A stretch of DNA of 45,659 nt from Catajapyx aquilonaris (lineage: Eukaryota): assembly GCA_000934665.2 (NCBI GenBank), contig JYFJ02003159.1, forward strand, positions 1-45,659, given 5' to 3'. This document shows, one piece after another, positions 942 through 41,829 of this stretch (positions within the stretch are counted from its first letter, which is position 1; every line of letters begins with the position of its first letter). The notes beneath the pieces were generated by a model. That model was not told where the DNA came from. It worked only from the letters and a program-made list of their open reading frames with translations, and did not search any database. The position numbers and the translations under genes are program-made.

Positions 942-2609
942 TCAGGCGATGATGCAACGTCCACCGGAAGAAGAATCCGTTTCCTGTTGCTGCTCTTCTT
1001 CCGGTTCATCCATCCCAGGATCCATCCTCATCTGAGTTGGTTGCACCGAAGCTCCGACTGCAGATGATGGTGATCGGAAGTAGTCATTCACGTTTTGCGG
1101 GTCCCTTTCAATCTCCCGAATGATGGTGGCCAGCCTTCCTCCGATGTTGGTCATCTGCACGTGCTTCCCGGTCCAGATGTTGTGTTGTGGACACCAGTAG
1201 TTTGGAAGCTCTCCCTTCAGAGCATAATCACGCAATGTCTTCAATGCCTGTAGAGGATGGAAACATGTATGTAAGACTCCAGTTCAATGGAAGAAGATTC
1301 AAATTGAAGCTTTGCGATCGACATACCAACATGAAGATTGATCCCAAGTGACGCTCTTCATATTCCCCATGTTTCTCCAGCATCCACATCACTGCCACTT
1401 TGATGTGATAGCTGGACAGGCCTTCGATGTTGGGGACATTTTCACGCATGCACTGGAACCATAATTATATATTACCGTTAACTGTCCTATAGCTATACTA
1501 TCGCAGAACATGGCAATGAAATGTGGCCTTACTTTGATCAGTCTGATGATCATTTTGATGCACCCTTTGTTGTAGAGCACAGAAGATCTCTCCGATTGTG
1601 AAAACCCAAGTCTCCACAGGCTTTTGTCCGTAAGGAACGATTCGGTTTTTGGGACAGCAAAAAAGTCTTTCTGTAGTGTAAATGCAGCAGATAATGTCAT
1701 AAGCCTTAATTTTTCATAAAATGTCATATCTCAAACCTTATGCTGTGCAACTTTCGGACGGACGCTGCTAGGCCAGTGCTTCTCTGAAAATGTGACAACC
1801 GGGACTAGGTCAACGTCAATAACCTTCGACCCGGCCGTGACACTGATTGTTATGGCAGGTCCCGACGTGCGGTATTTTTTCTCCTATAAAGACAACATGG
1901 AGGTTACCTAGGTTGTTTATCCTAATGTTAGTGTTCAAACTCAACCTTGACAGGAACGTCCGCGAGCTCAGACAGAGAGCGATGGACCACGCTCTGCATC
2001 CAACTTCTGACTTTCTCTGGCATCAACAACTTATTACCAGCAGAGCCCTCACACAACTTCAACAGGGCACTGGTTAAGTGATTTTAAAAATCTTATGAAC
2101 ACCTCAATAATTAGTGTTGAAAATGATGTTTCTAATAATTTTTACTCACGTGTCCGAGCAATCTTCTGGCAACTGAATACTTGCAAAACCAGGGTTGTTA
2201 TTGACGTTTACAAGCTGAAATGCATACCAATAATTAAAAATGCACTTTTGGGGTGTTTTGATTGACTTACTTCCATCTCATAAGGTATCACTAGTATGAC
2301 GTTTACGTCAAATTCAGTCGCTTCCTTGACCCTGAGTCTGTCATACATGCTTCCTGTCCAGTACACATTGTTGTGTCCAATCTGACTGAACAACGGGTCA
2401 ACTTTCTGCATGGTAGGAATCATGTGATTCTCCAGAACCTGAGTGAGGAGTCACACAATAATTAATGAACACTCAACCACAATAACGTAAAGGTTGCTTA
2501 CATCCTTCACTGTTTTAATGGACAGCCTTTTTTCCGCTTCGTCCATGGCAACCGAAGTTGCCATGATCTTTTTGAGGTGTGGCGACAGGACATTATCTTT
2601 CATATCCAT
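942..2609 (-). CDS. cGAS-like receptor (cGLR / Mab-21 nucleotidyltransferase) copy 1, multi-exon, with C-terminal CaaX
   Basis: Spliced by eye: MDMKDNVLSPHLKK (2609-2502), VLENHMIP..YWTGSMYDRLRVKEATEFDVNVIL (2438-2271), ..SGPAITISV..IDVDLVP, FFAVPK..WRLGFSQSER, LSSYHIKVAVMW, LPNYW..GGRCIIA* (stop 942). Contains the G-S, E-x-D and third Asp NTase motifs and the SYHxK motif of the cGAS/Mab-21 family; GT-AG introns in compatible phase. Confidence 0.9.
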
Positions 2610-3389
2610 GTTTTGGAATGAGATGGTGTTGGCAATGAACTATGTTATCCTTTGAACAAAACTGCCCTGTGAAGGAGGAGGGTCTAGAACTAGAACAATA
2701 ACTAATAAGTCCTGCCACGTAATGTGCAAATTATGGCAAAATTGCTTACCGGTACTAAAGCGACAGATGTCACGGAAAGTTGCTATGCTCTTCACTGACA
2801 CTGACTGATTCTAGATCAGTTGGCTGGCTTACCTCCTTAATAATTGTTATCTGAGTCTGTTTGTTCTTTCTCCTCTTATCGTCCGTAGCTCTGTACTGCA
2901 CATGGGTCGCTGCTGCACTGATATGGGAGATATGCCGACCTATCCAGAGTCACAGTATTAGCAACACCCTGCTCAGGCCGGAGCGAAAGAGAACTAGAGA
3001 AGGTTACAACCCACACTGTTGCCATATGTTCCTGTATACCTATAATTCGCCCATAGCGGCCATAGGGAATAATAATATCTACAAAAAAAATAGTTGAGGG
3101 TACTGGTTTTAACATGCTACAAGGAAATAACACATTGGTTCGCATATCAGATTTGCATACATTTGGAACTATTGATAACATTATAAGCAATCAGGCTGGA
3201 TTAATATAATAGGGTGGAATAATTCATCAGGATGTTTATTGAAATGTGGCACCCTGGGCTGCTTCTACTCATTTTCGGCGTGCTCGTGACAACCAGGAAC
3301 CTGGTCGTATTGCAAGCATAGACCTTTCTTGGGGTCACAAAACATTTGGTGACCCGCGTCCACTGGGCAGGCGAAGGTCTCGCTCGGCT

Positions 3390-3399
3390 GGAAATCCCC
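3390..3399 (-). promoter_or_regulatory. NF-kB (Rel) binding site upstream of cGLR copy 1
   Basis: GGAAATCCCC, i.e. GGGGATTTCC on the minus strand; matches the kB consensus. Confidence 0.45.
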
Positions 3400-3452
3400 G
3401 GACATCATTTCGTTGCAGAAAAAGTAGTGAGTGCAATTGGCACATATCTGCG

Positions 3453-3487
3453 GAATAATAATAATAATAATAATAATAGCTAATAAT
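3453..3487. repeat. (AAT)n microsatellite
   Basis: Directly visible AAT run. Confidence 0.9.
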
Positions 3488-3816
3488 CACATCAAAGCAT
3501 TAACAGACTATTAATTGCATTCAACAGGAAATGAGTGATGCCGATGTGTCATACTAGGATGCACATGTGCCCGGATATAAGATAATTGCGGCTTCAAGAT
3601 AAGTTCAGGATGTACAACCCAGTGATTTTATGTGCCAGTTACTTCATTCATTTGCATAACATTGTTGTTGTTTATTAAGACGCACGCATACGTCTTGTTT
3701 ACCTTCACATTACAATAACAGTTAAGTCTGCATGTATCAAAATAATGAAGACCTGCTTTATTAAATTTCGACCAAAATGTCCGCCACGAACCTTAACTAT
3801 ATATATATTTTGACGA

Positions 3817-4425
3817 TTAAAATTTGCTGCTTGTCAAAATCAATGCTGTAATATTTACCATTCCTCCCTTCCTGCATTCTTCTTCCAAACCATCTCTTTT
3901 TGGGCGGTTCAATTTTGCTGTGTCCAGATGCTCACATCCTGGAACATTAGATGGAAGATCGCAATAATACTCATTGTTGAAAGCCATTCCTTCAGGGCAC
4001 TCGAAGTCTTGTTGAACCAAATTCGAAGTTTCCTGCAATTGTTGGAAAGGTTTGTCAAAAAATAAGGCGCGTTTTTAGACATCCAATATTGTGCAATGGT
4101 TTCGCTGATTATTTTGATGATAATTGAGGTCTTACATTAATGCTGCACACGTGGTATCTGGTGCAGCTGGAGTTATATACTCCAGCACGTTCGCACTGGA
4201 AGTCTTCAGCAGGTTCCTCGTCCAATTCGGAGCGAATGGTCTTTTGGACGTCGTCGGAATCAAACAACTGCATACCTGCGTCCCAAATGTCGTCCAGCGA
4301 AAAGGCACTGGAGCACTGGAAAAATTACAAAGTGTACATTGCGCCTGAATTTGTCGAAATTGTTTTAACACAAGACGCACCGATAGGAAGCAGACCATGA
4401 CAGCGCACTTGAGCCTGTTATCCAT
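3817..4425 (-). CDS. Small secreted chitin-binding protein (peritrophin-A / CBM14 domain); 3' end uncertain
   Basis: Exons 4425-4381 (MDNRLKCAVMVCFLS), 4315-4136 and 4032-3859 join in phase 0. They give a signal-peptide-like start and a six-Cys motif C-ERAGVYNSS-C-TRYHV-C-..-C-PEGMAFNNEYY-C-DLPSNVPG-C typical of ChtBD2. Confidence 0.75.
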
Positions 4426-4780
4426 GCTTGCTGGTCGATTTTACATAGAAAGGTTGGGACGAGTTGAGAGCATCTTTTATCCCGAAAAAGCTGACGAATG
4501 TATGCATGAAAAATTTTCAGCAAGTGTTGTTGGTAAGTTGCATTTGGACTTCAAACTCTTTTGTGCTTTTTTTTGCGAAACTCATAAATGATAATATATG
4601 GATCGTATGTCATAAGACATGTGGATGCACTTGATGTGAATCATGCAGGAGGTAAATCGCATTGAACAGTTTGCCATGTTTTATGTATGAGAGAGTGATG
4701 GATACTTGGTTATTCTTCAAGTTTATTTCTGTGTACAGTACTTTATTTTCATACAACACTCAATAAGGCACTCAATTCTG

Positions 4781-6633
4781 TCACATCATGTACAAATCTT
4801 GCATATCTTTAACACTGGCCTTCATCGTTCTTCGGCGTAAATTCAGCTCTCTTCTGGTTGGATTCTCTGCACCTTCAACCAGCTCAGAGAGTTGCTGCGG
4901 TTGAATCTCGCAATATTTCAGCATTTCATATGCACGCAGCTTCAACCTGCGTACATCAGAAGGCGCCATATTTTCCATCAGGTTTTCGCCACTTGCCCAG
5001 AAATTTGGCATTTCCCCCCTTCTCAGAGCTGTGTTCAGCAGAAACAACAGAGCCTGAAGTGCAACATGCGTGTCAATTAATTGCAAATCACTTATTCAGA
5101 CATGCCCACCTTTTGAAATAGCGTTTCCACGTCGGTCAGGTCAGGATGATCATTCAGAACCCAAAGGACAGTGTTCTTTATCTGGTAGCTGTTGAGGATT
5201 GCTCCTCGATCTTGGGTTCCAAACATCAACTGTAAATAATGTGCTGGTTTGTGAATTTGATATTTCAAAGGCGTAGTTGTATATATATTATGTAACCTTC
5301 AGATGTCTGGCAACATCTCTTGCATATTTATGTCGCAGAAGATACCTCTCAGTTCTGTCAAAGCTCAACTTCCACATGTTCATAGACGTATTGATATGCT
5401 TGGGCTTTGGAACTGCGAAAAACCTTCGCGCCTGAAATTTTTGTCAAAATAATCATGCTGGCCTCCACTTCAAGAGAAGACCTACCGTACCTCTTCTGGA
5501 ATCCTTTGAATCCTCTGGTCATTTACAATTCCATGAGGCCACCGGGATGCTGGAAACTCCAGGACTGTAACCAAGTCAATGTCAAGCTGAACTCCATTTG
5601 GAAGTTTGACATCCAGGGTGACCCCAGGCTTGCACACGGTCACTCCAACGCTGGCCTCTTCAGCGTCTCTTGCTGGAAGGATCTTGAAAAAATGTGAATC
5701 CAAGTCTTTGTTGACTTCTCCAATTGTTTCGAAAACCAGCTCTGACAGCCACATTTTTATCTGTGATATACTTAGACAGCCATCGGTGTTTATCCAGCCG
5801 CAAAAGGTGCTGTAAATATGTACTGTTAGACCTTTGCTCTTTTGTAAAATGAAATACACTCGATCTCACCGGTAAGTGGGAGGGCCAGAGATGAATCTCT
5901 TTATCAGAATTTTTGGCTCCCTCACCCTGACGAAGACGCGATTTTGCGGTGCATTTCGTTTCTGTTCAAGCTGCATGTTAGGAAGAAAAATAGGATTACC
6001 GTTACAGGTAGTACTGACACGTCAAAAAGACAACACCTTCCTAGCACATACTGTCTTAATTTTTTATATCAATAATTAAAACACCTCTTGAAAAGGCGGC
6101 ATGGTTTGAATTACAATACTGACTTTCGGCAAGATTCAAGAAATAAATGCTGTGGCGAATTACGTACAATCAATTTGAAATCGTCTGGAATTTCCAAAAT
6201 CACGTTGATATCGAATTCCGTGGCCTCTTTGACTCTCAGTCCATTGAACATGCTTCCGGTCCAGTAGATATTTTCGTTTCGAAACAAGAGTGCAAACAAT
6301 GGATCCTTCTTTTTCATTATTGGCAGCAGTCGTCCTTCCATTAACTGTGGAGCATAAAGTCATAATACCATAATATTGTCAGAAATGCAGTGAAATAATT
6401 TAATTACATAACATACGCACATCTTTTGCTGCTGCTATGTATTGTTCTGCTTCTTGGGCGTTTATCTTGATTTTGGACTCTTCAGTATTTCTCAGAAACT
6501 TCGCTAGTCCGTCTTTCGAACTGGATTTTTCTGTAGTCTTCTGATGGACACCTTTGAAGGAATAAAATAACTCTGATACAATCTATACGCACTTCATCAC
6601 CTATTTAGTAGGCTACTGTTAGATCGCACCCAT
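4781..6633 (-). CDS. cGLR / Mab-21 nucleotidyltransferase copy 2, multi-exon (start codon tentative)
   Basis: Exons encode YWTGSMFNGLRVKEATEFDINVIL, KPGVTL..QLDIDLVTV, RRFFAVPK..WKLSFDRTER, LNSYQIKNTVLW and MPNFW..DLYMM* (stop 4781). Splice phases are compatible and no internal stop was seen. Confidence 0.88.
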
Positions 6634-7460
6634 TCTGAAAAATAATCTACTTTCACGCAATTTCTGTATATAAAATGCCACGTTTTCAGTTCAACAGTTT
6701 TGCTAAATTTCTCACAATCGCAGGCAAAAAAGAGTTAGTGTCCTGATTTTTATGTAATATTATAATAAGTGCTTAAGATCACGAGATACGTAAAATTAAG
6801 TGCTCCGTTAGTAGAAATCAACACTTAACAGTGATTGACACTAATAGTTATTTTTACGCATAATATATTGGTGACAAAACGGTGGATAAGAGCTGCAAGG
6901 GTATAAATAGCAGCAGGATGAAAATTTCATATTTAATATGAAATTACTGGAATTATTGAAGGATTTATGGCCTGCTGTATCAGCTCAAATATCAAGAAGA
7001 AAATTACTTAGAAACAATTGCTCACTATTTATTATGAATACATACGTATAAGTATATTCGTAAATTTTTCTTAATTTGTGTGGATGAAAGTGGCCCTTAG
7101 TTATTGTTACAGTCAATGATTGGAAAATTTATTTTGTAGGCAGGGGATAATTATTCCGGAGTGTCATACTATGGGCATTGGATTCGAAAGTAATCCATAT
7201 TTATCAATATTTATTATACGGACAAACCATGTTACGAGGAACAAAATCATATGCTACAAACAACTTTGCTTTATGTAGCCTTACTGTAAATTTTATTGCA
7301 TCTTATTAGTAGTCTAGCAATCACAACCTGGCAAAGTCTATTCATTAACAACAACTACTGGTTCAAAAAATTACCGCACATTTCATCAGGAGCACTCGCA
7401 GATTTGTAAATGTTACATTAGACCCAATCATCGGACAGAACTTGATATACAATACGAAAT

Positions 7461-10400
7461 CTAGTATGTCATAACGAAGTCATCGTCCGGACCTCTCTTC
7501 TGCCAAGGTTTTTTGTCTCGTGGTTTGTCCTTTCGTTTTCCTCCACGGTCCAGCTTCTTCGGGTGTCCCCGTGCCTTTTCCAGCATTCCCTTGATGACAG
7601 TCTTGAGGTTGCTGATGTCCTTCTTCTTCATCTTTCTCATCAAGTCCTCTCGGTCTGCCCAGTAATTAGGCATTTTCTCGTCTGTCAGAAAAGTGTTCAG
7701 AAGCAGAAGCAACGCCTGGAAGGAAGCGTGAAATCACGCACAGCTCATCTGTACCTTTTTTTCAAATTAACGATTGTAATCAATAAGGTACCTTCTCCAA
7801 AAGGTCGCCTCTGTCGGTCATGTACGGATAGTAATGCAGGGTCCAGAGGACAGTGTTCTTTATCTGGTAACTGTTTAATGTAGTTCCTCGGTTTTGAGTT
7901 CCAAACTTGTACTGTGGAGAAAGTCACATATTATTGACATTGTAATATCGGATTATTATGCCTCATCAACTACGAGTACCGATATATATTAAATACTTAA
8001 CAGCTTAACAATCGCCTCTTCAATATGAATACTGTATGTACCGACCTTAAGAAATTTGGCAACATTTTTGGCATATGTTTCTCGCAGAAGGTATCTCTCT
8101 GTTCTGTCAAAGCTCAGCTTCCACTTGTTTTTAGTAGTGGCGTCATATTTGGACTTGGGAACAGAGAAGAATCTTCTTTCCTGAAATATACATACAGCAA
8201 AATGTATTCATTGCTCTTGTGGTGGCTTATGAGTCGAAAATCTTGCCTCTTCTGGAACCTCTTGAATTCTTTCATCAAACCTGACTCCAGGAGGCCACGA
8301 GGATGCCGGAAACTCGAAGACGAAAACCAAGTCAATGTCTAGCTGGACTCCGTTCGGAAGCTTGACCTCCAGAGTGACGCCTGGCCTGCAGTATGACACT
8401 CCGACACTGGCGTCGTCGGCGTCGTCTCCTTCCGGAATGTTGAGGAAAAGCGACTCAATATCTCGGTTGGCTTCCCTGCGAGCTCCTTCAACCATATCCC
8501 TCATCCAACCTTTGACCCCTTGAGGCTTAACGTGACCCTCGCCATCTATCCATTTATGCAGCTCCCTGAAATGGTACAGCAACGCATTCCTCACTTTCCA
8601 ATTAGGCTAATTAATTACTATTTTAATAATAGCAGCTATTGCTTTTAAGAATCGCTCAAGCCTCAAGGTACCTTTAAAACACTGCCAAAACCATCTACAC
8701 TGCATTATGCTCATAAAAATAAATTTTACTTCGGGAATTATTGACATGGATAGATGTAGAGAAATTTAAATCATCATCATTGTCACATTGCAGGATATTA
8801 CTTACACATAAGCAGGGTTACCAGAGTCCGATTTACTCTTAATCATCTGAGCGTCGGAGGGTTGAACCTTGACGAAAGCATAATTTTGCGGGACATCGCT
8901 TGGCTGAGACAACTACATGAAATATTTTTTTTTAAAACTTGCAGAATTGCATAAAAATAATGGAAAAGAAAACTGTGTATACCTGCAAGGGAGACATGCC
9001 GTCCGGCATTTCCAAAACAATGTTGACGTCGAATTCCGTAGCTTCTGCGACCCTCAGACCATTGAACATGCTTCCGGTCCAGTAGATCTTTTCGTTCCGA
9101 AACAGGAGTGCAAACAGTGGATCATTGCTTTTCATCCACGGCAACATGCATCCTTCCACCAACTGGAATAAAGAAGCATTATTTTAAAAGATTCATTCAG
9201 GAGAATGAAAAATTTGGTGCATGTTTACGTCTTTTGCTGCTGAAACGTATAGAGCGGATTCCTGCTTGTCAATCTTGATATTTTTGCTTGCAATTTTCTT
9301 CATGAACGTTGTGAGCCTTCCTCTTGGGGTTGATTCTTTGCACATCTCTATGTACTCCTGGAATATTAAAATTACCTCCATTTCACTACCACTCTAAAAC
9401 CCTCTCACTATTCGTTGCTCTATACACTATACTATAGTTTATAGTAGGTTACCTAATATAAACATTATTTTGAGAACATTTTCCTGGTACGGGGATTAAC
9501 CTTTCAAAGGCGACTTACGAGTCTCATAAAAGCACATAAAAGCCAATATATAATGATAGATTAACGCCAGACATCTAGGTGAGACTATCTTATCGCGTAA
9601 GTTAGGCAGGAAAGTGTCGAGCTAAACATGAGACACATTATTTTCAATGTTCTTATCAGTGAAAATCGGGTAAATATCGAAAAAATAAATCCCACCGACA
9701 GTTGACAACGTATGATATCACACATGACAAGGATGCAGTTATTGTTTTATCATATTTCCTATAGACATCAATCATAGATTTACACACAAGTTCAAAGTAG
9801 ATTTACGGTAACATTGCGTCAGCTAGTTTGTAAATAAGTATTTTATCCGTAAAAGGAATTGTATGGCTGTTCAAACAGAGTGAATGAACCGCCAGTGAGT
9901 GCAAGCAGTGGGTTTTGGCAGCTGGCCAAAACAGAAACTTTGTCGCCCAGTCAAGGTCAATTCCATTGAGCGCCGGAAATTAATGCATATTAAACTTACT
10001 TTTTGCAGCAGTACATTCGCTTCCAAGAATTCTTTGCCGGCAATTAGAAACACAACATTACCGGTAATTATTTTTGGGGTGCCCTTGATGAATTTTGAAA
10101 TCTGCATGGTCACTGCCAAATATTGTCCGGTGTGAGACTTGTCTGCAGATGTACTTACAGGCTCTGTCGAGTACTCTTCAGGTGGTTTGATTCCAGTTTT
10201 GTGTCCCATTTTTGGTTGATGGTGGAAATCGGGACGGCCTGTAATCAAATATTGAACATTCTCAAGTGCAACATTTCGGTCCAGTTGCGTCAGATATATG
10301 AGTCGGATATATGAGTAGACTCAGTAGAGTATTTACCTGGACATTTGCTGTGTTCAGTCTTTCTTTTTGTCGATTTAGTGCTTTTGTACAGCCCTTGTAT

Positions 10401-10532
10401 CAATTCATCGTACTTCTGCAATGAGATTATTACGACTGTGATGCGCCTGAGACATATGAGATGTCCGTTACTTACGGAATCTGAGTCTGAATCCGATGAT
10501 GGGCACTCATCCTGATTTCCACCAGATGCCAT
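7461..10532 (-). CDS. cGLR / Mab-21 nucleotidyltransferase copy 3 with low-complexity N-terminal extension
   Basis: Proposed first exons MASGGNQDECPSSDSDSDS (ATG 10532), KYDELIQG.. and GRPDFHHQ.. splice in phase to EYIEMCK (9357). Core motifs: YWTGSMFNGLRVAEATEFDVNIV, QLDIDLVF, WKLSFDRTER, NSYQIKNT. Basic tail ends DDDFVMTY* (7461). One GC-AG intron (8181-8246). Confidence 0.85.
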
Positions 10533-10790
10533 GTTCCTAAGGCAGTGTTGAACCGGGTTGCAAGTCTTGAATCCAAGCAGAAGGCAGGCCTGCAAATTGA
10601 TGATAGTTCAGAACGCGGTTCAAGTAGGGACCGGATTTTATGACAGACCGCGATGGTGTAGCTCCGTAGTGTAACTGCGGCTCGCCACATTAGAAGCCTC
10701 TCAGCAGCCTCTCAGGATATAAATGGATCGGGTTCAGTTCTTAGAAACCGAGTGGCATGTTGTGTATGGTGTCACGGGCCAGCTTTTCAG

Positions 10791-10800
10791 GGGATTTCCC
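10791..10800. promoter_or_regulatory. NF-kB binding site upstream of cGLR copy 3
   Basis: GGGATTTCCC about 260 bp upstream of the proposed ATG; conserved in paralogous promoters. Confidence 0.6.
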
Positions 10801-11426
10801 TCTACATGGACATTCGTGTCCGATTGGCTCAAAGTGATACGATGAGATTTCATCCTGCACTGATCTGTAGTTATCAACAAACTTGCCTCATTATTAAGAG
10901 GGCACCATTATTGGCACCCATTATTCCCATTGACAACATTTTCCATTTCATTCACCCAGCCGCATTGACTTTGTGATTACAAGCTTCCCGGCTCGGTCTT
11001 TTATCACGAGGACAAGTTAGGGCACAAGGCCACAACTGTAATGTCCTAGTTTTTTTTAACATTGATCTTTGAGTTTAGCTCATTCCTCGTGAGCTGGCGC
11101 CATGTGACGAACCTCTTCTTTACGTGCAAGGCCATTCATAGTAGCGACTTGGAAATTACTCGTTAGATGGCTTCTACACACTGGAGATAGGCCTGTATCG
11201 TATTGAACCGGTCGATACGAACCTGCCATATGAAAACTTTTACATAGAATAGATGTTTAGGGCACCATTGACGAGTTCGAAAAGTATGATACCTTTGTAA
11301 AACACTCAGTGAGACTACATGATAGTTTATTTTACACATGACAAAAAATTCAGTACGTAAGTACACAGAAAAATCTCAAATGCAATTTTGATCACATACC
11401 ATACACTCAAAAGGGAGACGTCATCG

Positions 11427-12465
11427 TTATGTCCTCGCACTTTTTCTCAGTTTTCTTCTCTCCTCATTGTAATTTTATGCTGTTTCCTTTTGGCATGCCT
11501 CCAAGAAAAAGTTTTCCCGGTTTCCCCTCGCAAGCTGTCAGCATTTGTTCGATAGCCTGCTTTTCTGCTTCGATCCCAAATTCCTCATCAAGTCTTCTCC
11601 ACCTGCCCAGTAATTAGGAAGTTTCTTCTCCTTTAAAAAGGTGTTCAGGAGCGACAACAACAAAGCCTAGGGCAACACGCATATGTTTCAATTAATCCAG
11701 CAAATTATCAACATTATATGGCAAAAAATTCACTGCATGAATTTACCTTATGGATGCCTATATTTAGTTTCTTTAGAGCTGGGATGGTTTTGTGAAAAGA
11801 TCTATCAGTTTCATAGGTGCAGGATGTGAAAAATGTAGGCTAAAATTGCCTATTTCGTGGATTTGCGAACTATTTTTCCTGTTCTGCCTTTTTGTGACTT
11901 TTCATGCCAATTTGGCCTTTTGTGGGATAGTTTTTGAACCTTTTGAAGCACTTTCCTGACTTTTTGGGCCTCTTCCTTCAGAGGCATGTTTGGTTTTATT
12001 TTGCGAACTATTTTTTTTGTACTCCTGAAATGACCAAAATCGTTCAGAAATAATACGAATCATGTTGTCGTATGAGTCTGAAGGCGGTTCCAGTCAGAGG
12101 AAAATCTAGAAAAATATTTGGTAAGATACCGTACTGTGCAAGTGGAAACAGTAAGTGGGAGTAGTAGGTATGGGAGTAGTGGAAGTGATGTTGACAAAAT
12201 AATGTGAATCCAAAGTTCTTGTTGACTTCTACAAGTGCGACGTCAACTATGTATAGGTCTCGCATGACCAGGCTTTGATAAGTTGCGGTTTTATGTGGCC
12301 CTGTTCGTCCATCAAATTCAACGAGGAGCTCAAAAAAGCCCAGTGTGAATAAACGACTCCTTGATACTATAGTTAGTATAGTATTAGGCACACATTACAA
12401 TAAAAGGTTTTTACCAGCAATAATCGGCACAACCTGAGTCTGATTTCCTCTGCATGATTTCAATG
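11427..12465 (-). pseudogene. cGLR copy 4, degenerate fragment of a copy-7-type gene
   Basis: Aligns by eye to 19226-20360. The last exon (LLSLLNTFLKEKKLPNYWAGGEDLMRNL) has a deletion after SRL causing a frameshift and stop. Middle exons are degraded or missing and the GS/EFD exon is absent. Confidence 0.75.
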
Positions 12466-12726
12466 GTCTTCAGTTAAACAAACTAAATATAGTGCTCAAA
12501 ATCACAGGTAAAAAGTAGTTAGTGTCCTGATTTTGATTAATACACTAACAGTAAGTGCTTCAGATCATGGGATATAATTATGGTTAGTTTAAATAGACCA
12601 CTTAACAGTGATGGATACATTTCTTTGCACAAAATTGGTGACAAAAAATTAATGTGGATAAGATACGTAAAGGTAAATAACAGCAGGATGAAATTTGAAT
12701 GTACTCCAATTATTACAAGTAGAAAT

Positions 12727-12970
12727 GAGAGGTGTGGTGGAAAAACGTGACAACCATCATTTTTTGACCTGAACACTTAGCAACTACGCATGTAAAAGAC
12801 ATGACAAACAGTTTGGTATTCTCAAAGTTCACGTGTCATGCACGAGACGGATACACGGGCTAGATCAAAACCCGAATTCCTTACGATTTGTGAAGAGAAT
12901 TTAAACTTAAATTCGCTCTCCCGAAAAATTGCACTTTTGTCGGTTGTCACGCTTTTCCACCACACCGCTC
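12727..12970. mobile_element. Non-autonomous DNA transposon (MITE), about 29-bp TIRs, 4-bp AAAT TSD, Sola-like termini
   Basis: GAGAGGTGTGGTGGAAAAACGTGACAACC ... GGTTGTCACGCTTTTCCACCACACCGCTC with AAAT on both sides. The paralogous region near 7000 shows the empty site. Confidence 0.8.
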
Positions 12971-13379
12971 AAATTATTTAGGAAAGATGGCTCACTATTT
13001 ATTATGAATACGTACTCATAATCCTAAATTTTCCTCAATATTTAGTTATTGTGCTGTACTTTCTGCAAAATTTATTTTGCAGGCAGGGAATGTATTGGGA
13101 GTGTCATATTGCATGCTTTATGCATGGTAAAGGTATGTATGATTTGAAAAGATCCACATTCATCAATATTTTATTACAGACAAACCATCATGTTACGAGC
13201 AACAAAACAATCTGCTCCTAACAACTTTCATTTATGGCACCTTACTGTAGATTTTGGAGCGTCTTATTCGGTGTTATTAGTAGTCAAAATGCGCATTTTA
13301 GGATCACTCACAGATTTATAAACGTTACATTAAACGCAACCGGCTGATAGAACTTGATACACTACACTGTCCAATAAAA

Positions 13380-16300
13380 TTAATAGGTCATTCCAACGAA
13401 GTCATCCGGACCTGGAGAGCTGTGCTTCTGCCAAGGTTTCTTCTTGTCTCGTGACCTGTCCTTTGGTTTTCCGCCACCCAGCTTCTTCGGGTGACCCCGT
13501 GCCTTTTCCAGCATTCCCTTGATGACAGTCTTGAGGTTGCTAATGTCCTTCTTCTTCATCTTTCTCATCAAGTCCTCTTGGTCTGCCCAGTAATTAGGCA
13601 TTTTCTCGTCTGCCAGAAAAGTGTTCAGAAGCAGAAGCAAAGCCTGGAAGGAAACGTGAAATCATGCACTGCTGCTCATTTACACTTTATTTTTTTTTGC
13701 AAATTAAGGATTCTAATCAGAAAGGTACTACCTTCTGCAAAAGATCACCTCTGTCGGTCATGTATGGATAGTAATGCATGGTCCAGAGGACAGTGTTCTT
13801 TATCTGGTAACTGTTTAGTGTTGTTCCTCGGTCTTGAGTTCCAAACTTGTACTGTGGAGAAAGTCACATGTTATTGACATTGTAATATATCGGATTATTA
13901 TGCCTCATCAACTACGAGTACCGGTATATATTAAATAATTAACATCTTAACAATCGCCTCTTCAATCTGAATACTGTATGTACCCACCTTAAGAAATTTG
14001 GCAACATTTTTGGCATATGTTTCTCGCAGAAGGTATCTCTCTGTTCTGTCGAAGCTCAGCTTCCACTTGTTTTTAGTAGTGGCGTCATATTTGGACTTGG
14101 GAACAGAGAAGAATCTTCTTTCCTGAAATATACATACAGCAAAATGTATTCATTGCTCTTGTGGTGGCTTATGAGTCGAAAATCTTGCCTCTTCTGGAAC
14201 CTCTTGAATTCTTTCATCAAACCTGACTCCAGGAGGCCACGAGGATGCCGGAAACTCGAAGACGAAAACCAAGTCAATGTCAAGCTGGACTCCGTTCGGA
14301 AGCTTGACCTCCAGAGTGACGCCTGGCCTGCAATATGACACTCCGACACTGGCGTCGTCGGCGTCGTCTCCTTCCGGAATGTTGAGGAAAAGCGACTCAA
14401 TATCTCTGTTGGCTTCCCTGCGAGCTCCCTCACCGATGTCCCTCATCCAACCTTTGACCCCTTGAGGCTTAACGTGACCCTCGCCATCTATCCATTGATG
14501 CAGCTCCCTGAATTGTACAGCAACGCATTCATCATCTTCTAATTATTAGGCTAATTAAATGCTATGACCTTAATAATATCAGCTAGTGCTTTTGAGGTAC
14601 ACTCCCGGTACATAACTTCAAAGCACCGTCAAAACCATCTACACTGTATTATGCTGTATTAAATATAGTTTTGGCATTACCGATGTGGATATAGACGTAA
14701 AGAATTTTGAAGAATCACTGATTTCTTTTGTAATATTTCAGGACATTACTTACACATAAGCAGCATTGCCAGAGTCCGATTTACTCTTAATCATCTGAAC
14801 GTCGGAGGGTTGAACCTTGACGAAAGCATAATTTTGTGGGGCTTCGCTTGTCTGAGACAACTGCATGAAATAACAAAACCGTGGGATGTAATGTTAATTA
14901 TTGCAGTTCAGTATTGCAGGAAAATGTGGGTACCTGCAAGGGAGACACGTCGTCCGGCATTTCCAAAACAATGTTGACGTCGAATTCCGTTGCCTCTGCG
15001 ACCCTCAGACCATTGAACATGCTTCCGGTCCAGTAGATCTTTTCGTTCCGAAACAGGAGTGCAAACAGTGGATCATTGCTTTTCATCCAGGGCAGCATGC
15101 ATCCTTCCACCAACTGGAATGAGAAGCACGTGAAATTCCATTCCAGGAAATGAAAAGGGTGCTGAATATTTACGTCTTTTGCTGCTGAAACGTATAGCTC
15201 CGATTCCTGCTCGTCAATCTTTATATTTTTGTTTGCAATTTTCTTCATGAACGTTGTAAGCCTACCTTTGGGGGTTGCTTCTTTGACCAACTCCACGTAA
15301 TCCAACTTCTGGAATATTAAAAATTACCACGATTTCACAACCACTTAAAAATCTTCCCACTATTTGCTGGTCTTTTGATAATAATCTGCACTGAAAACAT
15401 TATTCTGAGAAAATTTTCCTGGTGCAGGGATTAATCTTCCAGAGGCAACTTATGGGTCACATAAAAGCCAATGGATGATAATAATTGACGCCAGACTGGA
15501 GACTATACCTATCTTATCAGTGTTATCGCAATATTGTTGGGAACCTCTTTAACCTCTTTCTCAGACATACCTGGCATCGTTTTCGTTACTATCTCTACTT
15601 TCAAGCAAATATTTTCCACTCTAAGGGCCGGTTCCATCAAGACCGGTTTATGATAAAACTCTGGTTCTTACGGAAACTCCCTGCAAATAGAATAGGGATT
15701 TTCCGAAAGAACCGTGGTTTTATCATAAACCGGTATTTTATCATTTTTCCTAGACATCAATCATTGATTTACACACTTCAATGTAAATTTATCGGTAACA
15801 TTGCGTCATCGAGTTTGTAAATAAGTATTTTAGCCTCAAAAGGAATTGTATAATATTTAATATGCCATGGCAGAGTGATGAACCGCCAGCATGCTGGACA
15901 GTGAGTGCGGTTTTGTCGCCCAGTCAAGGTCAATATATTCGAATCAGTGACTGAATCTCGCCATGAAGTCTGGCAAATTAATGCATTCGTATTTTTTTTG
16001 CATCAGTAAACACATTTATTATCTGATTTCTTTGCAATTAGGTACGCCGCATAACCATTTACAGGTAATAATATTCTTGCGATGCATTTGATGATTCTCG
16101 AACTTTTCATGGTCAATGTGAAATGGTACAGTACAAGTGAGTGTGAAACTCTTTTTTTTTGCAGGTGTGTACTTACAACTAGAGTGTCCGCATAAGAAGA
16201 TGGCTTGATTCCAGTTTGGTGTCCCTTTTTTGGTTGATGGTGGACATCTGGACGGCCAGTAATGAAAATTAATACTGAACATTCTTTCTCAAATGCATTG

Positions 16301-16590
16301 CACCAACATTTAACCCCAGTTGCATCATCCAAGGTTTTTTAAAGAACTCGCATTATGTGCTGAAAATATTTACCTTGACGTTCAGTCTTTCCAGGTAGAA
16401 TTGAGCTCATCAATAATTTCTTTTCTTTTGATTTTAAAGGTTGGTCTAACAATAATTCATAGTACTTCTGCAATGAGATTATTCGTGATGGTTCGGGTTA
16501 TGGGACTCGGACATAATATAGGAGGTTACTTACGGAATCCGAGTCTGAATCCGATGATGGGCACTCATCCTGATTTGCTCCAGATGCCAT
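13380..16590 (-). CDS. cGLR / Mab-21 nucleotidyltransferase copy 5 (close paralog of copy 3)
   Basis: Same exon series as copy 3 (MASGANQDECPSSDSDSDS, ATG 16590) with intact GS, EFD, DID and SYQIK motifs; ends DDFVGMTY* (13380). The exon-3 acceptor is mutated AG>TG, but an in-frame AG lies 18 nt upstream (exon start 16274). GC-AG intron at 14123-14188. Confidence 0.8.
15642..15734. mobile_element. Fold-back/MITE-like palindrome in a cGLR5 intron
   Basis: 41-bp arms 15642-15682 and 15694-15734 (ACCGGTTTATGATAAAAC perfect for 18 bp) with an 11-nt loop; absent from the paralogous copy-3 intron. Confidence 0.7.
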
Positions 16591-16827
16591 GTTGCTAAGG
16601 CAGTGTTGGACCGGGGTGCAAGTTTTGAGTACAAGCAGAAGGGAGACCTGCGAATGTCTTAGTTCAGAATGCGGTTCAAGTTGGCCTAATTTTATGACAG
16701 ACCGTGATGGTGTAGCTCCGTAGTGCAATTGGTGCGCCCCACATTAGAAGCCTCCTAGGGTGCAAATTGATCAGGTTAGACACCATGTGACACGTTGTGG
16801 ATGGTGTCACCCACCGCAGATTTTGAG

Positions 16828-16837
16828 GGGATTTCCC
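16828..16837. promoter_or_regulatory. NF-kB binding site upstream of cGLR copy 5
   Basis: GGGATTTCCC retained exactly although the flanking promoter has diverged from copy 3. Confidence 0.6.
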
Positions 16838-17501
16838 TCGACATGGATAATCATGTCCGATTAGCTTTCTGTAGCCTAACACTTTGATACGATGAGATTT
16901 GATAACAGATCAACAAACTTAACTCCTAACTCGATTTTAACTACCCGATTATAAAAAGTGGACATCATAGATTATTCAGTGGTTTCCAACATTTTACTGA
17001 TTGCGACCCCCTTAAACATGTTTCCATAAATGTAAATAAATTGTGAAAATTTTCTCGCCGTTTCGCCTGAATTTATCGGAATTGTTTGAACACAAGACGC
17101 ACCGAAAAGAAGCAGATGACAGCATATTTGAGCCTGTTATACATTCGTGGAGGTCGATTTTACATAGAAAGGTTGGGCCGAGCTGAGAACATCTTTGATC
17201 CCAAAAAAGCTGCAGAATGTATGTATTCAAAATTATTTTATTTTCGGCAAGTGTGTTATCGGCTTCAAGCTCTTTTGTGCTTTTTTTTGCGAAACTCATA
17301 AAGGATAATGTGTATCGTATATGTCAACAAATATGTGAATGCACTTGTTGTGAATCATATACAGGAGGCAAATCGCATTGAACATTTCGACACGCTTTAT
17401 GTATGAGAGAACGTGACGGATACATAGTCAGTCATCAGTTTTATTTCTGCCGTGTACAATACTTTTATTTCATACAGCACAATGTAAGGCACTCAATTGT
17501 G

Positions 17502-18359
17502 TCACATCATGTACAAATCTTGCATATCTTTAACACTGGCCTTCATCGTTCTTCGGCGTAAATTCAGCTCTCTTCTGGTTGGATTCTCTGCACCTGCAAC
17601 CAGCTCAGAGAGTTTCTGCGGTTCAATCTCGCAAGATTTCAGCATTTCATATGCACGCAGCTTCAACCTGCGTAACATCAGAAGGCGCCATATTTTCCAT
17701 CAGGTTTTCGCCACTTGCCCAGAAATTTGGCATTTTCCCCCTTCTCAGAGCTGTGTTCAGCAAAAACAACAGAGCCTGAAGTGCAACATGTGTAGCAATT
17801 ATTAATTATTGTCAATCACTAACTTATCCAGAGATGTTTACCTTCTGGAAGAGCGTTTCTACGTCGGTCAGGTCAGGATGGTCATTCAGAACCCAAAGGA
17901 CAGTGTTCTTTATTTGGTAACTGTTGAGGAGTGCTCCCCGGTCTTGGGTTCCAAACATCAACTGTAAGATTATGAAGAATTATGTGCATTTGGTACTGCA
18001 AAGGCGTCTATTGTATATGTAACCTTCAGATGTCTGGCAACATCTCTTGCGTATTTCTCTCTCAGAAGATACCTCTCCGTTCTGTCAAAGCTCAACTTCC
18101 ATATATGAGGGCATAAGATGAATTAGGCTTTGGAACTGCGAAAAACCTTCGCTCCTGAAATTTTTTGTCAAACCAAGTCTTGTGAATACAGATCGCGGTC
18201 TCCGTGTCAAGAACAGAACATAGGATTTAGTCGTGTATTAATCGTACTTTTGCAATGAAATTATTCGGATTATGGGCCTGAGACATACGACACGTTACTT
18301 ACAGAATCTGAGTCTGAATCCGATGATGGGCACTCATCCTGATTTCCACCAGATGCCAT
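17502..18359 (-). pseudogene. cGLR copy 6, chimeric pseudogene (copy-3-type first exon plus last three exons of copy-2 type)
   Basis: 17502-18160 aligns to 4781-5430, with frameshifts in the FFAVPK exon and a 1-nt insertion in the last exon (cgtaacatca vs cgtacatca). 18300-18359 is a near-identical copy of the copy-3 first exon. Catalytic exons are absent. Confidence 0.8.
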
Positions 18360-18604
18360 GTTCCTAAGGCAGTGTTGAACCTGGTTGCAAGTCTTGAATC
18401 CAAGCAGAAGGCAGGCCTGCAAATGATATAGTTCAGAACGTGGTTCAAGTAGGGACCGGATTTTATGACAGACCGCGATGGTGTAGCTCCGTAGTGTAAC
18501 TGCGGCTCGCCACATTAGAAGCCTCTCAGGATATAAATGGATCGGGTTCAGTTCTTAGAAACCGAGTGGCATGTTGTGTATGGTGTCACGGGCCAGCTTT
18601 TCAG

Positions 18605-18614
18605 GGGATTTCCC
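18605..18614. promoter_or_regulatory. NF-kB binding site upstream of cGLR pseudogene copy 6
   Basis: GGGATTTCCC in the duplicated copy-3-type promoter. Confidence 0.5.
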
Positions 18615-19225
18615 TCTACATGGACGATTGCCTCGAAGTGATACGATGAGATTTGTTCCTGCAGTGATCTGTAGTTATCAATAAACTTGCCTCATTATTA
18701 AGAGGGCATCATTATTCCCATGGGAAATATTTTCCATTTCATTCACTCAGCGGCATTGACCTTGTCATTACAAGCTTCCCGGGTAAGTTTTTACCCCCAT
18801 GAGGACAAGGTCACAAACTGGAATGTCCTAGATTGGGGTTCCGCCTTTTTTGACATTGATCTTTGAGTTTAGCGCATTCCTCGTGCTGGCGCCATGTGAC
18901 GAACCAGGCAAGGCCATTCAATTTAAAAACCACTCGATAGATGGCTTCTACACTAGAGCTGGAGATAGATCGACATAGTGTATACAAAAACCCTCCTTGG
19001 TCGCGCACTAGTCGATACGAACCTGCCATATGAATACAGTGATTTACATATGACGCATAATTATGACCACCTAATGCTTATCAGGAGTATTCAGAAAATG
19101 GTGCCATTTCAGGTGCGAAAAGTGTAATACAAACACTCAATGAGACTGTACATGGTAGTTTATTTAACATCACAAAAATTCAGCAAGTACAAAGACAAAT
19201 GGCAAATGAAGAAATTAGCGAGATG

Positions 19226-21641
19226 TCATGTCCTCGTACTTTTCCTCAGCTTTCTTCTCTCCTCGTGTAATTTTATACTGTCTTCTTTTGTCGTGACTTC
19301 AGGAAAAAGTCTTTCCGGTTTCGCCTCGCAAGCTGTCAGCATTTCTTCTATCATATGTTTTAGCCTGCTTTTCTGCTTCGATGTCAAATTCCTCATCAAG
19401 TCTTCGCCAACTGCCCAATAATTAGGCATTTTCTTCTCCTTTAAAAACGTGTTCAGGAGCAACAACAAAGCCTGTGAAAAATGCGCGTGTGTTAATTCAG
19501 CAAATAATGAACATTATGCGATGAATTTACCTTCTGGAAGAGCGTTCCTATGTCTGCTGTCACTTCAGCGTTGTCACTAATGATCCAGAGGACAGTGTTT
19601 TTTACCTGGTAGCTGTTGAGGATTGCATTCCGCTCTTGGGTGCCAAATATCAACTATAGGAAAAGGATTGTAACATCTGGTGACTTTAATTATTTTAATA
19701 ACCAGAATTATTATAAGCGACGCTAACCTTCAGATGTTTGGTAACATCTTTTGCATAATCTTCTCGAAGAAGATACCTCTCGGTTCTGTCAAAACTCAAC
19801 TTCCACATGCTCCTAGAATTTGCATTGTATTTGGATTTGGGGACAGCGAAAAACGTTCGTTCCTGATGAAATATGGATTAGATTAGACATTAGAGCCACT
19901 TTAATTTTATGGAAAGTGACCTTGCCTCTTCTGGAACATCTCGAATCCTCTGGTCACATCTGACTCCAGTAGGCCATGAAGATGCCGGAAACTCAAAGAC
20001 GAATACAATGTCAATGTCAAGCTGGACTCCATTGGGCAGCTTGGCTACCAGCGTGACTCCAGGCTTTGTGTAACTTATTCCGACGCTGGCGTCGTCGGCG
20101 TCTGGCACGGGAGTGATGTTGACAAAATGTGAATCTAAGTCATTGTTGACTTCTACAAGTGCCTCGTGAACTAGATCCCGCATCCAGTGTTTGATAAGTT
20201 GCGGTTTTATGTGGTCATCTTGGTCCATCAAATCCAAAGGGGAACTGAAAAAAGCTCATACGAATAAACGACTACTTCTGTATATTACATCACAATAAAA
20301 TAATTACCAGTAATAATTGGCACAGCCTGAGTCTGATTTCCTCTGCATGATTTCAATGTCGGATTTCAAGACATTAACAAAGGCATAATTTTGTGGGGTG
20401 TTCTCTTCCTGCTGCAGCTGCACATTAAAAATTTTATTTTCAGAGTTAGTGGAGATGAAATTAAGCCAGCTTAGAAATGTTCCCCAAAAAATTAGACATC
20501 GTTCGGATATATTTTTAAATATATCAAGCAGATCACGAAAAATCCTTCCAGTTACAAAAGTTTCCCCTTCTTTCTCATATGCAATAATTAATATGCAAGA
20601 GTGAAGAAGTTAGCGGACTCTGGAAAATTGTACCGTACCTCCAACCGGACACCATCCGGCATTTCCAAAATTACGTTGACATCAAATTCCGTTGCCTCTC
20701 CGACCCTCAACCCGTTGAACATGCTTCCGGTCCAGTAGATGTGTTCGTTTCGAAACATAAGTGCGAATAGTGCATTATTCCTTTTCATCGAAGGCAGAAT
20801 GCATCCTTCCACCAGCTGAAAAATAAATCCACCAACATTATTGATGCCTAATTTGCTAATAATATTGGTAAAATGGAAGGTTAGGCCCACCTGTTTGGTT
20901 GCTGACACGTATAGTGTTTCCTCTTTTTCGTCGATTGGGTGTTTTTTGTCTGCAATCTTCTTCAAGAAATTGGACAGCTTTTCTCTTACTTTTACCATTT
21001 CTGTCATAAAATATAGTTTAATAATTATTAATCATGTATTTTTGGACTTAAATTTGAGGCAGTATTTTCGCATGTCATATCCTGCATGCAACTTGAAACA
21101 TTCTTCTCGACTCTTGCCCATTGTGAAATCAACAATCATTTATTTGGTTGACGTACTGCTACATCTTATTTTGTCTGACTGTGAGACTGCGCATTTCCCG
21201 TGAACTCGAACTAAAACTGTTAAACATTTATTTACCTTGGCTTTTTATATTGGTAGTAGTAACACGGCGATTGGACTTTTTGCTCTCTCTTCGTACTGTT
21301 TTACGAGCGTTGGAATAGCCAGACAGAAATAATTCATCGTCCTTCTGTAAGAAATAATAAAGCTGAATAATGTGGCGAATTATTAGTCTGCATTACTTAC
21401 AACTACAAGAATGTGCAATTACAATGTTGCCATGTGGGATGCTCAAATTTTTCAGAATTATAAAATGCCCAACTCTTTTTTTAAAAAAAAACAACATATA
21501 GGATATGCCCACTTTTATATTGAATTGTGCACTGTCTCTAAGCACACTTACGGAATCAGGCTTGGATTCAGAGGACGAGGACACTGGTCCGGAAGCTGCT
21601 TTATTCTTCTGGATTCCATCATGCCGCCGAGGAACTGACAT
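19226..21641 (-). CDS. cGLR / Mab-21 nucleotidyltransferase copy 7 (start tentative)
   Basis: Exons: MSVPRRHDG..SSSSESKPDS (21641-21552), KDDELFLSG.., MVKVREKLSNFLKK.., YWTGSMFNGLRVGEATEFDVNVIL, QLDIDIVF, WKLSFDRTER, NSYQVKNT, MPNYW..KSTRT* (19226). Phases are compatible; GC-AG intron at 19863-19925. Confidence 0.85.
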
Positions 21642-22127: not shown

Positions 22128-26466
<4,339 letters not shown>

Positions 26467-32968: not shown

Positions 32969-34544
32969 TTTTGTCAACAACTTACGACGTATAGTTCTCC
33001 AAGCAAGTGAGAATAAGCGTTCTTACAAAATGTTGTATATAGAACGGATATTTTTCTGATAAAAACAGGAAGTGTTTAATCATGCTTCATGTTTCCTTTA
33101 GTGGTCAACCACAAGAAAGGTCTGAAACTTCCCCAAGAAGGAAGGATAACGTGGTTTACGTGCATAAAAATACATTGGGTGGAAAAAACTCTCAAATAAT
33201 TTTCAAACATTGCACTTATAGAGCGCAACATAAAATTTGAAATGCAATTCAATACTGTACGGAATAGTCATACCGGACGATGTTGAAATGTATATCATGA
33301 CTGTTTTGGCTTCACTACTCGCGCAACCGAATAAACCGTCATTTTCCTGTCGAACTCGCCTGTGAAACCGGGTGTGTCGTTAATAATGAATGACAACTCT
33401 CTTTTCCCAATAGCGTGACGTTTAAATCCACTTGTACTTACCGACTCTCGAAAAATCTTGCCAGTTGTTGCATTTGACACGTAAGGAATGTTAAGGAATG
33501 TCGATAATATTTTTGTCACCACTTTATTCCAGTATCAAATTGGATCATGCCAGAGGCAGTATTATACTGATTATATACTGTATACACTTTCATCACTACA
33601 TACACACGGTTACTGAATAATGAATAAGATTACGTACTGTTACCTAAAGTGTGAAAATAAAATTATTGCACAATTTTGTTAACACGCACCTCACATCTGA
33701 CATTGTTTTCCTCGACCTTCAGCCCTTGAAAGAATATGTTTGCGTCATGGATAAAATGAAGCAACCTGTTATGAGTAAGACATTGCCTTTGATTGTACCG
33801 ACACAAACTGCAATTTTGCAGACGCAAACAGACCTCTGTTGGTATCTGATCTGTTTCAAGAGATTGCAGGTCCCTTAAGAGAACGCGATATATCGATCGG
33901 TGTCTTGCATCGTACCGAAAGCTTACGTAACTCGCCATCATTGGCACTTTAGTTTTTCACAAAATTCGCTTGTAACTGAATAATGATTTCTTGCCTTTGT
34001 AAGGTACGAATAACACTGTAAAGAGCATTTCAATAATTGAAATATTCACACTTATTATTTTCCTTTCAATCGAGCGCTACCAGAAATGGGGGCTTATAAT
34101 GTTGTGCAGAAATATTCAGGCCATCATGACTTTCCATGAATTTAATTGCGAGTGACTCATTCTGACCATTCCTGCAGGATACAATCGTTATGTCTCATTA
34201 TGTCCATCTAATGCTATCAGCCGTCAGGTTATGTTAGACCAATATTTGACCCACAAGACATATTTCAATGTGACATTGCAACAACTGATTGTCCTTGGCC
34301 TTTACGTAATCCTCGTCAGGTATTCAGTAATTGCACTAGCTACGTTGTAACATCTAGATAAACAGTCCTTATTAAAATTGATGGAAGGTTTGAAACATTG
34401 CCTGTGTCCCTATTAACCTGTCCTGATAAGAGCATTGTTGGTATACACTTGCGCAAATCACGCGATTCTACTCAATTATTAGTGTGTTGTTTCTGCGACC
34501 TTATAAAAACCAGGGAGAAGGATAGGTACGTTGTACTTGCAACC

Positions 34545-38970: not shown

Positions 38971-39665
38971 CAAGCAGTCCTGCTGATTAAGTGTGGGAAA
39001 TATGCGGTTTTACCTCCAATTAGTCATCACCTCATATGGTACTGTGCCAGTGAAATACGAGAACAAGTTTCACGATATTCTTTGCTGGAAAAATAAAAAC
39101 ACTGGGTCTACAATTTTTCTTCTTCTAATGCCTGTAATTCAAAATTATCTGCAGTAAAATTTTCATGAATTTTATTATGGTTCTCATTCAGACATTTGTT
39201 GCATTATAGCAAAATAAGCCGACAATTATTATTCGGGGCTGCGTGACGTCACTGGAGATGCGCGTCACACATAAATTATCTCTTTATGTTTTATAGGCAA
39301 AGTACAGAGCAGAAAACACTTACACAGTAAATAAAGTGATGAACCGCTTTTTACAATCATTTTGAGCTTTAGATTTGAAATCATATAATACTGCATTTAT
39401 ACAGTATACAATGTGTCTCAACTTTTTTTGTCCCAACAGTTGTTATCGGAAATATTGCACTAAGCTCTTTCGGTTGCAGTATGCAATATAGGTTCAAGAG
39501 CTTTGCGTTGCAAAAAACAAATTCACCTTTCAAGTTATTATCTTCGTTATCACCTAAATTTACGGGCTCAGATAAAACATTGAATTCCAGGAAGTGCCAT
39601 AAGTGTCGTCGTGCACATATAAGTGGACCTCTGTCTCTATAGATGGCATTCGGTCTTTTTCAAGG

Positions 39666-41653: not shown

Positions 41654-41829
41654 CAAGAAATAATATGTCATATTGTTGGTAACACGTGACTTTAGCTGGA
41701 AATAGTAATTCATATAGTTTTGGTGTAGTCCCTGTGCAAGAATTGACGCCTATTGAAATAAATGCCTTGCAGGCAAAAAAATATATATTCCATAATTCGC
41801 AGCAGAAATTGAGCATGTTTTTTTTTACT

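Follow-up and report, generated by a model that had tools for sequence, protein, structure and literature searches.

Tandem array of cGAS-like receptor genes in Catajapyx aquilonaris, with five open copies, two remnants and signs of gene conversion

Among the described cGAS-like receptors (cGLRs), that of Tribolium castaneum (XP_969398.1, PDB 7LT2) has had its activity, ligand and product measured and is activated by double-stranded RNA (dsRNA), according to the available part of PMC8410604. Drosophila genomes hold several cGLR paralogs (2-7 per species), with repeated duplication and loss and with both basic and acidic members (bioRxiv 10.1101/2023.05.08.539652 and PMC8410604, available in part; bioRxiv 2025.06.05.657997, also available in part, is a further source on cGLRs). 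In corals and bivalves, lineage-specific radiations accompany more than one STING, with >40 cGLRs and 7 STING in a coral and >200 cGLRs in bivalves (PMC9980059, partial text). Here we describe a tandem array of cGLR-type genes in Catajapyx aquilonaris. The window analysed was the entire contig JYFJ02003159.1 (45,659 nucleotides (nt), lacking any N) of assembly GCA_000934665.2, which is fragmented (285.6 Mb, 20,583 contigs). The genome possesses at least nine cGLR-type loci with GS and E-D, and two STING loci, and thus resembles the coral and bivalve cases on a smaller scale. As in Drosophila, several paralogs occur per genome, repeatedly gained and lost, and basic members stand beside acidic ones. 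The available descriptions of the Drosophila repertoire make no mention of seven loci in a tandem array, of chimeric remnants or of gene conversion, the supplements of the bioRxiv paper lying outside the comparison. The array is an instance of a known pattern, since cGLR expansion and loss have already been published.

Self-comparison and motif scans identified seven related loci (L1 to L7), all on the minus strand, between 942 (the L1 stop) and 21641 (the L7 ATG). Coordinate splicing recovered open frames of 393-502 amino acids (aa) from L1, L2, L3, L5 and L7, and left L4 and L6 broken. A preliminary description of this DNA had proposed five intact-looking genes and two pseudogenes on one strand, and this was confirmed. 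The array is genuine, and its five open genes carry the full cGLR fold signature and catalytic triad. L1 (942..2609) has 8 coding exons and encodes ~393 aa from the ATG at 2609. It is the most canonical copy (SGPA, DVDLVP, WRL, SSYHIK), and its N-M-D start is also found in a 57% identical relative on contig C7324. L2 (4781..6633; 419 aa, 8 coding exons) is intact only if a 4-nt first coding exon, ATGG, is placed at 6633-6630. Contig C12119 retains this predicted micro-exon together with its donor. A leader spliced from L3 onto L2 would be phase-compatible, but was rejected as lacking support, the local 4-nt exon being simpler. L3 (7461..10532) encodes 486 aa in 10 exons, with an N-terminal extension that is acidic and then basic, and a basic tail. 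L5 (13380..16590) encodes 502 aa if an in-frame AG at 16275 serves as acceptor. The position equivalent to the acceptor of L3 exon 3 reads TG instead of AG at 16257, and the AG lying 18 nt upstream is itself a change relative to L3. The splice choices for L5 and L2 are thus predictions. L7 (19226..21641) encodes 472 aa in 9 exons. Introns are GT-AG throughout the five models except for one GC-AG intron each in L3 (8246-8181), L7 (19925-19863) and L5; L2 has GT at this place. Protein identity is 88% between L3 and L5, 50-55% among L2, L3 and L7, and 27-28% between L1 and the others.

All five spliced models keep WTGS, EFD[VI], D[IV]D and SY[HQ][IV]K, and so conform to the residue pattern h[QT]GS, [DE]h[DE]h, h[DE]h published in the accessible part of PMC9980059, the last of these as [VI]D[LI]; the GS, E-F-D and D-[IV]-D motifs and the SY[HQ][IV]K lysine are therefore present as first described. 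In all five models the 35-residue stretch that follows W[KR]L[SG]F is free of any His/Cys insert, and the zinc ribbon of vertebrate-type cGAS is absent from them, as had also been claimed. The Tribolium cGLR likewise combines a GS loop, E-h-D and a third Asp with the lack of a zinc ribbon, and shares DPLF..LFR before the GS loop. It differs in having GGPA where L2, L3, L5 and L7 have [KR]PG, and L3, L5 and L7 further differ from it by N- and C-terminal extensions. The first spacer between the motifs is 11 residues in the array, and the second is 97 in L1 and 123-126 in the others, against the X8-20 and X50-90 given in the available text of PMC9980059. The second spacer is 98-148 in 27 of the 29 homolog rows with the triad column (282 and 38 in the other two) and 118, by our own count from the alignment, in the active Tribolium cGLR (Tc-cGLR). 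Since most arthropod rows and an active enzyme exceed it, the published limit does not separate members, and a long second spacer was rejected as a sign of inactivity.

Pfam matches to Mab-21 or Mab-21_C at E<=0.1 were found in 11 of the 17 array open reading frames (ORFs) scanned, four of them above the curated cut-off. Mab-21 matched the L3 ORF at 8211-8606 (E 2.9e-9) and the L7 ORF at 19893-20255 (E 2.4e-9), and five last-exon ORFs matched Mab-21_C with E 5e-4 to 0.046, none of them reaching the curated cut-off. The five spliced models matched a profile of 11 arthropod cGLRs with E 1.9e-79 to 6.5e-57 over ~360-380 of 404 positions (~10-380). The Mab-21 assignment was thereby borne out, and the homology takes in the nucleotidyltransferase core as well as the C-terminal helix bundle. 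The cGLRs retrieved from ticks, spiders and insects (among them Ixodes CAN8026188.1 and those of Periplaneta, Schistocerca and Diabrotica) have the same Mab-21 plus Mab-21_C architecture and full-length profile match, although identity of the array to six homolog-type rows was only 20-34%. Against solved structures, the L3 exon carrying GS and EFD had Tribolium 7LT2 as its only match at E<1 (E 5.8e-7). Of the other exons searched, one from L3 gave chance matches only and another gave cGAS chains at E 0.09-0.18. A profile search with four exons against 1.84 billion representative proteins returned eight matches, four of them false and repeat-rich and four true Mab-21 proteins. The best true match had E 4e-5, and no close relative of L2, L3, L5 and L7 was detected in this set. 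A word-based protein search with the 60-aa GS/EFD exon gave 11 candidates, none of them scored, which is weak evidence. A protein-atlas search gave a top cluster at 0.94 with Mab-21 in 13% of its members (recognition 1850, under the trust level) and serves as a lead only. Four array motifs were not found in six supplements of the 3,020-cGLR catalogue (PMC9980059, available in part), in which control motifs were found, but whose long files were possibly incomplete.

The Mab-21 fold is also common to developmental Mab21 proteins of the MAB21L1/2 type, one of which is encoded in the same genome on contig C170. This gene is intronless, lacks GS, has E-E-Q in place of E-D-D, and shows 18-20% identity to the array proteins, against 28-57% between the array and the C7324 cGLR. 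Four intron positions align within one column with those of L1 and the C7324 gene, and the Mab21 gene has none. Because the triad is intact, identity to the intronless Mab21 is so low, and intron positions are shared with L1 and the C7324 gene, we place the array outside Mab21. The cGLR profile and the 7LT2 match agree with the original assignment to cGLRs.

A tree of 38 rows was built from the five array proteins, three others from the same genome and a chosen subset of 30 of the 84 retrieved proteins; it left out the C2920 gene (poor gene model), the ankyrin-fused gene on C206 and any Drosophila sequence. L2, L3, L5 and L7 formed a clade (support 100/100) on a stem of 1.75 changes per column, while L1 paired with the C7324 gene (100/99). 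In this tree the array genes lay outside the insect and chelicerate clades. Approximately unbiased (AU) tests on 20 rows rejected neither monophyly of the array (p 0.06) nor a position of L2/3/5/7 beside Mab21 (p 0.67).

The further cGLR-type genes were located on contigs C7324, C403, C206 and C2920. The C206 gene (1233-4468) joins ankyrin repeats to a cGLR domain in which GS and E-D-D are present, and the C2920 gene (~4450-4780, minus strand) is a partial model with SGS and EFD. The search for STING that the preliminary description had called for recovered two STING-domain genes in tandem on the minus strand of contig C6185 (~2900-3900 and ~8800-9700), and a Rel domain was found on 3 contigs of the genome. 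Candidate regulatory sites were sought with GGGRNWTYCC, which we take to be the NF-kappaB site pattern, with the expectation obtained from shuffles. The window held 13 matches against 1.8 expected, and these collapsed to 4 promoter sites, of which 3 derive from a single one by copying, together with 2 sites inside a repeat and 1 at another place. The kappaB-like site GGGGATTTCC (3390..3399, minus strand) lies 781 nt upstream of the L1 ATG. The site GGGGATTTCCC lies 258 nt upstream of the L3 ATG (10790..10800), and its copies lie 237 nt upstream of the L5 ATG (16827..16837) and 245 nt upstream of the L6 first exon (18604..18614). Genome-wide, GGGGATTTCCC occurred 197 times in 285.6 Mb, against 120 for the reversed control, and 3 of these lie 237-258 nt before type-3 first exons. 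Similar sites were present upstream of the cGLR gene on C403 and in the interval that separates the STING loci, where the palindromic GGGGAATCCCC lies at 4951-4961; none was seen in the C206, C2920 and Mab21 stretches. An ISRE-like (interferon-stimulated response element) signal was discarded, with 3 loose matches in the first 24 kb and 5 in the remainder of the window.

We suggest that the array is a lineage-specific tandem family of cGLRs, and that at least some copies probably act as nucleic-acid sensors (dsRNA being the likeliest ligand) that signal to STING and a Relish-type factor by means of a cyclic dinucleotide. Some copies, with L2 and L3 as the best candidates, would bind long double-stranded nucleic acid, most likely dsRNA, on a basic groove behind the spine helix, and would then cyclise two nucleoside triphosphates. 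The resulting cyclic dinucleotide would act through STING on a Relish-type NF-kappaB factor, which may in turn act on the kappaB-like sites so that L1, L3 and L5 are transcribed more strongly. Such feed-forward induction fits these sites, as motif matches, and has a counterpart in Drosophila, where cGLR3 and STING are induced by cGAMP (PMC10917227, partial text). The full-length isoelectric point (pI) is 9.2 in L2, 8.8 in L3, 8.5 in L7 (core 6.2), 8.3 in L5 and 6.9 in L1, and nucleic-acid sensors typically exceed 8.5. By this measure L2 and L3 have the charge expected of nucleic-acid binders, L5 and L7 are borderline cases, and L1 is at odds with such binding.

Several observations weigh against this reading. 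L1 and the L7 core fall short of the typical pI, and L5 stands at 8.3. In one reporter screen, STING was activated by just 15 of the 52 Drosophila cGLRs, and many screened cGLRs were inactive in vitro, as far as the available reports go. Since, in addition, three shrimp Mab21 proteins are reported to work without making cGAMP, intact motifs do not prove sensing. The three GGGGATTTCCC promoter copies represent one duplicated site, the pattern was narrowed after being seen, other blocks of the type-3 promoter are as well conserved as the site itself, and no strict kappaB site was found upstream of L2 and L7. Synonymous divergence (dS) among L2, L3 and L7, at 0.9-1.2, approaches saturation. The tree gives the long L2/3/5/7 branch no firm position, and by itself leaves room for a basal place next to Mab21 (p-AU 0.67). 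Finally, L2/3/5/7 depart from the arthropod cGLR rows at three positions that do not vary there (29/29, 29/29 and 30/30, respectively): PG replaces PA, the Pro that follows D-L-V is lost, and WK replaces WR.

These three changes, the first of which adjoins the third catalytic strand, would be expected if the L2/3/5/7 clade had a remodelled substrate pocket, with a signal other than cGAMP or a ligand other than nucleic acid, perhaps read by one of the two STING paralogs. The long and fully supported stem and the remoteness of the best true database match (E 4e-5) point in the same direction, and oyster and coral cGLRs are reported to make cUA products (PMC9980059, available in part). However, neither that Pro nor that Arg is present in Tc-cGLR (DLVA and WSL), which is reported to make 2'3'-cGAMP; two of the three changes are thus tolerated in such an enzyme, and only PA to PG stands out. 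The pocket-lining place of the changed positions is moreover deduced from the alignment, and the invariance was scored on the chosen 30 of 84 proteins. We therefore consider a remodelled pocket fairly unlikely.

It is very doubtful that the array proteins act without a second messenger, as kinase scaffolds. Three crustacean Mab21-domain proteins, according to the accessible part of PMC12928593, activate IKK-epsilon without nucleic-acid binding or cGAMP synthesis, and the neutral pI of L1 and the L7 core would suit such a role. However, the shrimp proteins lack canonical ligand residues (same source, in part) and were likened to the array by description and not by sequence, whereas all of the array proteins retain GS, E-D-D and the SY..K lysine across 27-55% identity.

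Three small contigs match parts of the array: C12119 matches the 3' half of L3 (96%) and the 5' half of L2 (93%), C12131 matches the 3' half of L5 (96-97%) and reaches from L5 across the L4 repeat into the distal promoter of L3, and C15531 matches an L5 intron (97-98%). A palindromic high-copy element in L5 intron 3 (15639..15737) is missing from C15531. Synonymous differences between the window and the three contigs were 7/155, 4/97 and 5/166. These values are similar to one another and well below the divergence of L3 from L5 (dS 0.15, with introns differing by 26% outside the conversion tract described below), and the three contigs are therefore read as a second haplotype, though they could instead be further tandem blocks. 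On the former reading L3 and L5 are paralogs. That the two are alleles, a possibility raised in the preliminary description, was rejected, because each has its own small contig at 96-98% while their introns differ by 26%. In C12119, the stretch from the L3 stop to the L2 start (1131-1465 of that contig) is 335 nt long and lacks AATAAA and ATTAAA, against 827 nt with four AATAAA in the window, and a read-through L3-L2 transcript is possible on the short haplotype. No second contig was found in the assembly for L1, L6 or L7.

A tract in L3 (7912..8465, minus strand) is common to L5 (~13852-14407) and covers the strand of the third catalytic Asp, FFSVPK, WKLSF and two introns. Within it, L3 and L5 introns differed at 6 of 200 positions, against 113 of 429 outside (Fisher p 1e-14, with borders picked after inspection), and third codon positions at 3/118 against 35/296. 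One 66-nt intron was identical (66/66), and an identical run of 230 nt was present. This pattern indicates that the catalytic half of L3 and L5 has been homogenised by gene conversion. Pure assembly collapse of the tract is argued against because some sites within it are common across paralogs and because C12131, though near-identical there, has SNPs (single-nucleotide polymorphisms) of its own. The last exon of L2 and L6 appears to have been homogenised too, with synonymous differences of 1/58 against 15/53 (p 6e-5). We found no literature on gene conversion within a cGLR array, most subscription literature lying outside the search. It is highly improbable that part of the array is an assembly artefact, with divergent haplotypes placed in tandem or a collapsed repeat mimicking conversion: the fragmented assembly, the uncollapsed small contigs, the 230-nt run and the L7-L6, L6-L5 and L2-L1 junctions, each on one contig only, would suit it, but L3 and L5 have separate small contigs, C12131 and C12119 (the latter across L3 and L2) span neighbouring loci, C12131 carries its own SNPs and a 2-nt deletion within the tract, and the window has no N.

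Selection on the intact copies is purifying. The ratio of non-synonymous to synonymous substitution (dN/dS) was 0.21 for the L3/L5 core, 0.25-0.45 among L2, L3, L5 and L7, and 0.20, 0 and 0.32 against the three small contigs; the dN/dS check called for beforehand thus gave 0.21-0.45 among intact copies.

The two broken loci record losses. L4 (11430..12465, minus strand) is a remnant of an L7-type gene, with 88% identity to L7 and several indels, and retains parts of three exons only: exons 5-6 in part (12465-12181) and the last exon in frameshifted form (~11670-11430). A repeat inside it (~11744-12180) has 439 candidate copies, and most of L4 is missing from C12131. A 246-nt element nearby (12726-12971), with 30-nt terminal inverted repeats and not found in the matching L3 flank, is probably a MITE (miniature inverted-repeat transposable element). 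L6 (17502..18359, minus strand) is a chimeric pseudogene, in which a deletion has brought an L3-type exon 1 (18359-18303) next to the three 3'-terminal exons of an L2-type gene (18154-17502). Its 5' end (first exon and promoter) is 96.9% like L3 and its 3' end 89% like L2, which rules out a simple type-2 copy. It has two frameshifts (a 4-nt deletion and a 1-nt insertion) and lacks the catalytic exons, and with them GS, EFD and the third Asp. The four sequence types first proposed (1; 2/6; 3/5; 4/7) therefore hold for L4 but not for L6, a 3/2 chimera.

Block boundaries were read from self-comparison, and the junctions from L5 through L4 to the L3 promoter, and from L3 to L2, recur in separate contigs. 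In the simplest history, an old split would have given L1 and the ancestor of L2/3/5/7, and duplication of a 7-3-2 block followed by neighbour-fusing deletions would have left L6, a 3/2 chimera, and L4, a type-7 remnant. Between L3 and L5, conversion may then maintain similarity in the catalytic half, and the N-termini and the spine helix would drift. Birth-and-death evolution, as proposed earlier, agrees with purifying selection among the intact copies, the two remnants and the difference of L4 between contigs. It is an incomplete account, since block duplication with deletion and gene conversion, a concerted component, also act. The lineage-specific tandem expansion with gene death itself was upheld.

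A more elaborate possibility, which we regard as quite unlikely, is that the private L2/3/5/7 subfamily, with [KR]PG for GPA, makes a signal new to arthropods. Conversion would keep the product-forming half uniform while the ligand-binding spine diversifies, an NF-kappaB loop would amplify the array, and L3 and L2 would be co-transcribed on the haplotype lacking intervening polyadenylation signals. With the array, an arthropod lineage that has been little sampled gains five cGLRs not catalogued before; four of these belong to a divergent clade, which makes them reasonable targets for product screens. It also displays cGLR turnover at the level of sequence, with block duplication, deletion chimeras, repeat insertion, haplotype-like structural differences and conversion that runs through the catalytic half. 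Unless the proteins turn out to have unusual biochemistry, the advance is incremental.

The remainder of the window contained other genes. On the minus strand, a receptor tyrosine kinase gene (22128-26100) has kinase and last immunoglobulin (Ig) exons 74-88% like those of a neighbouring PVR-type gene (27231 onward), and its upstream exons encode two C-type lectin domains. The PVR-type neighbour, the short introns and the homologs are all in keeping with an arthropod source. On the plus strand, an ionotropic-receptor-like gene in two long frames (34362-36628) had a weak Lig_chan match (E 0.004) and was followed by two Ig-domain genes with similar exons, apparently duplicated (37378-41900). A plus-strand frame at 42110-42703 resembled a decayed TRP-channel fragment by eye and had no Pfam match. 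An intronless 522-aa leucine-rich-repeat frame (43381-44949, plus strand) had a match to the kappaB pattern within it, at 43891.

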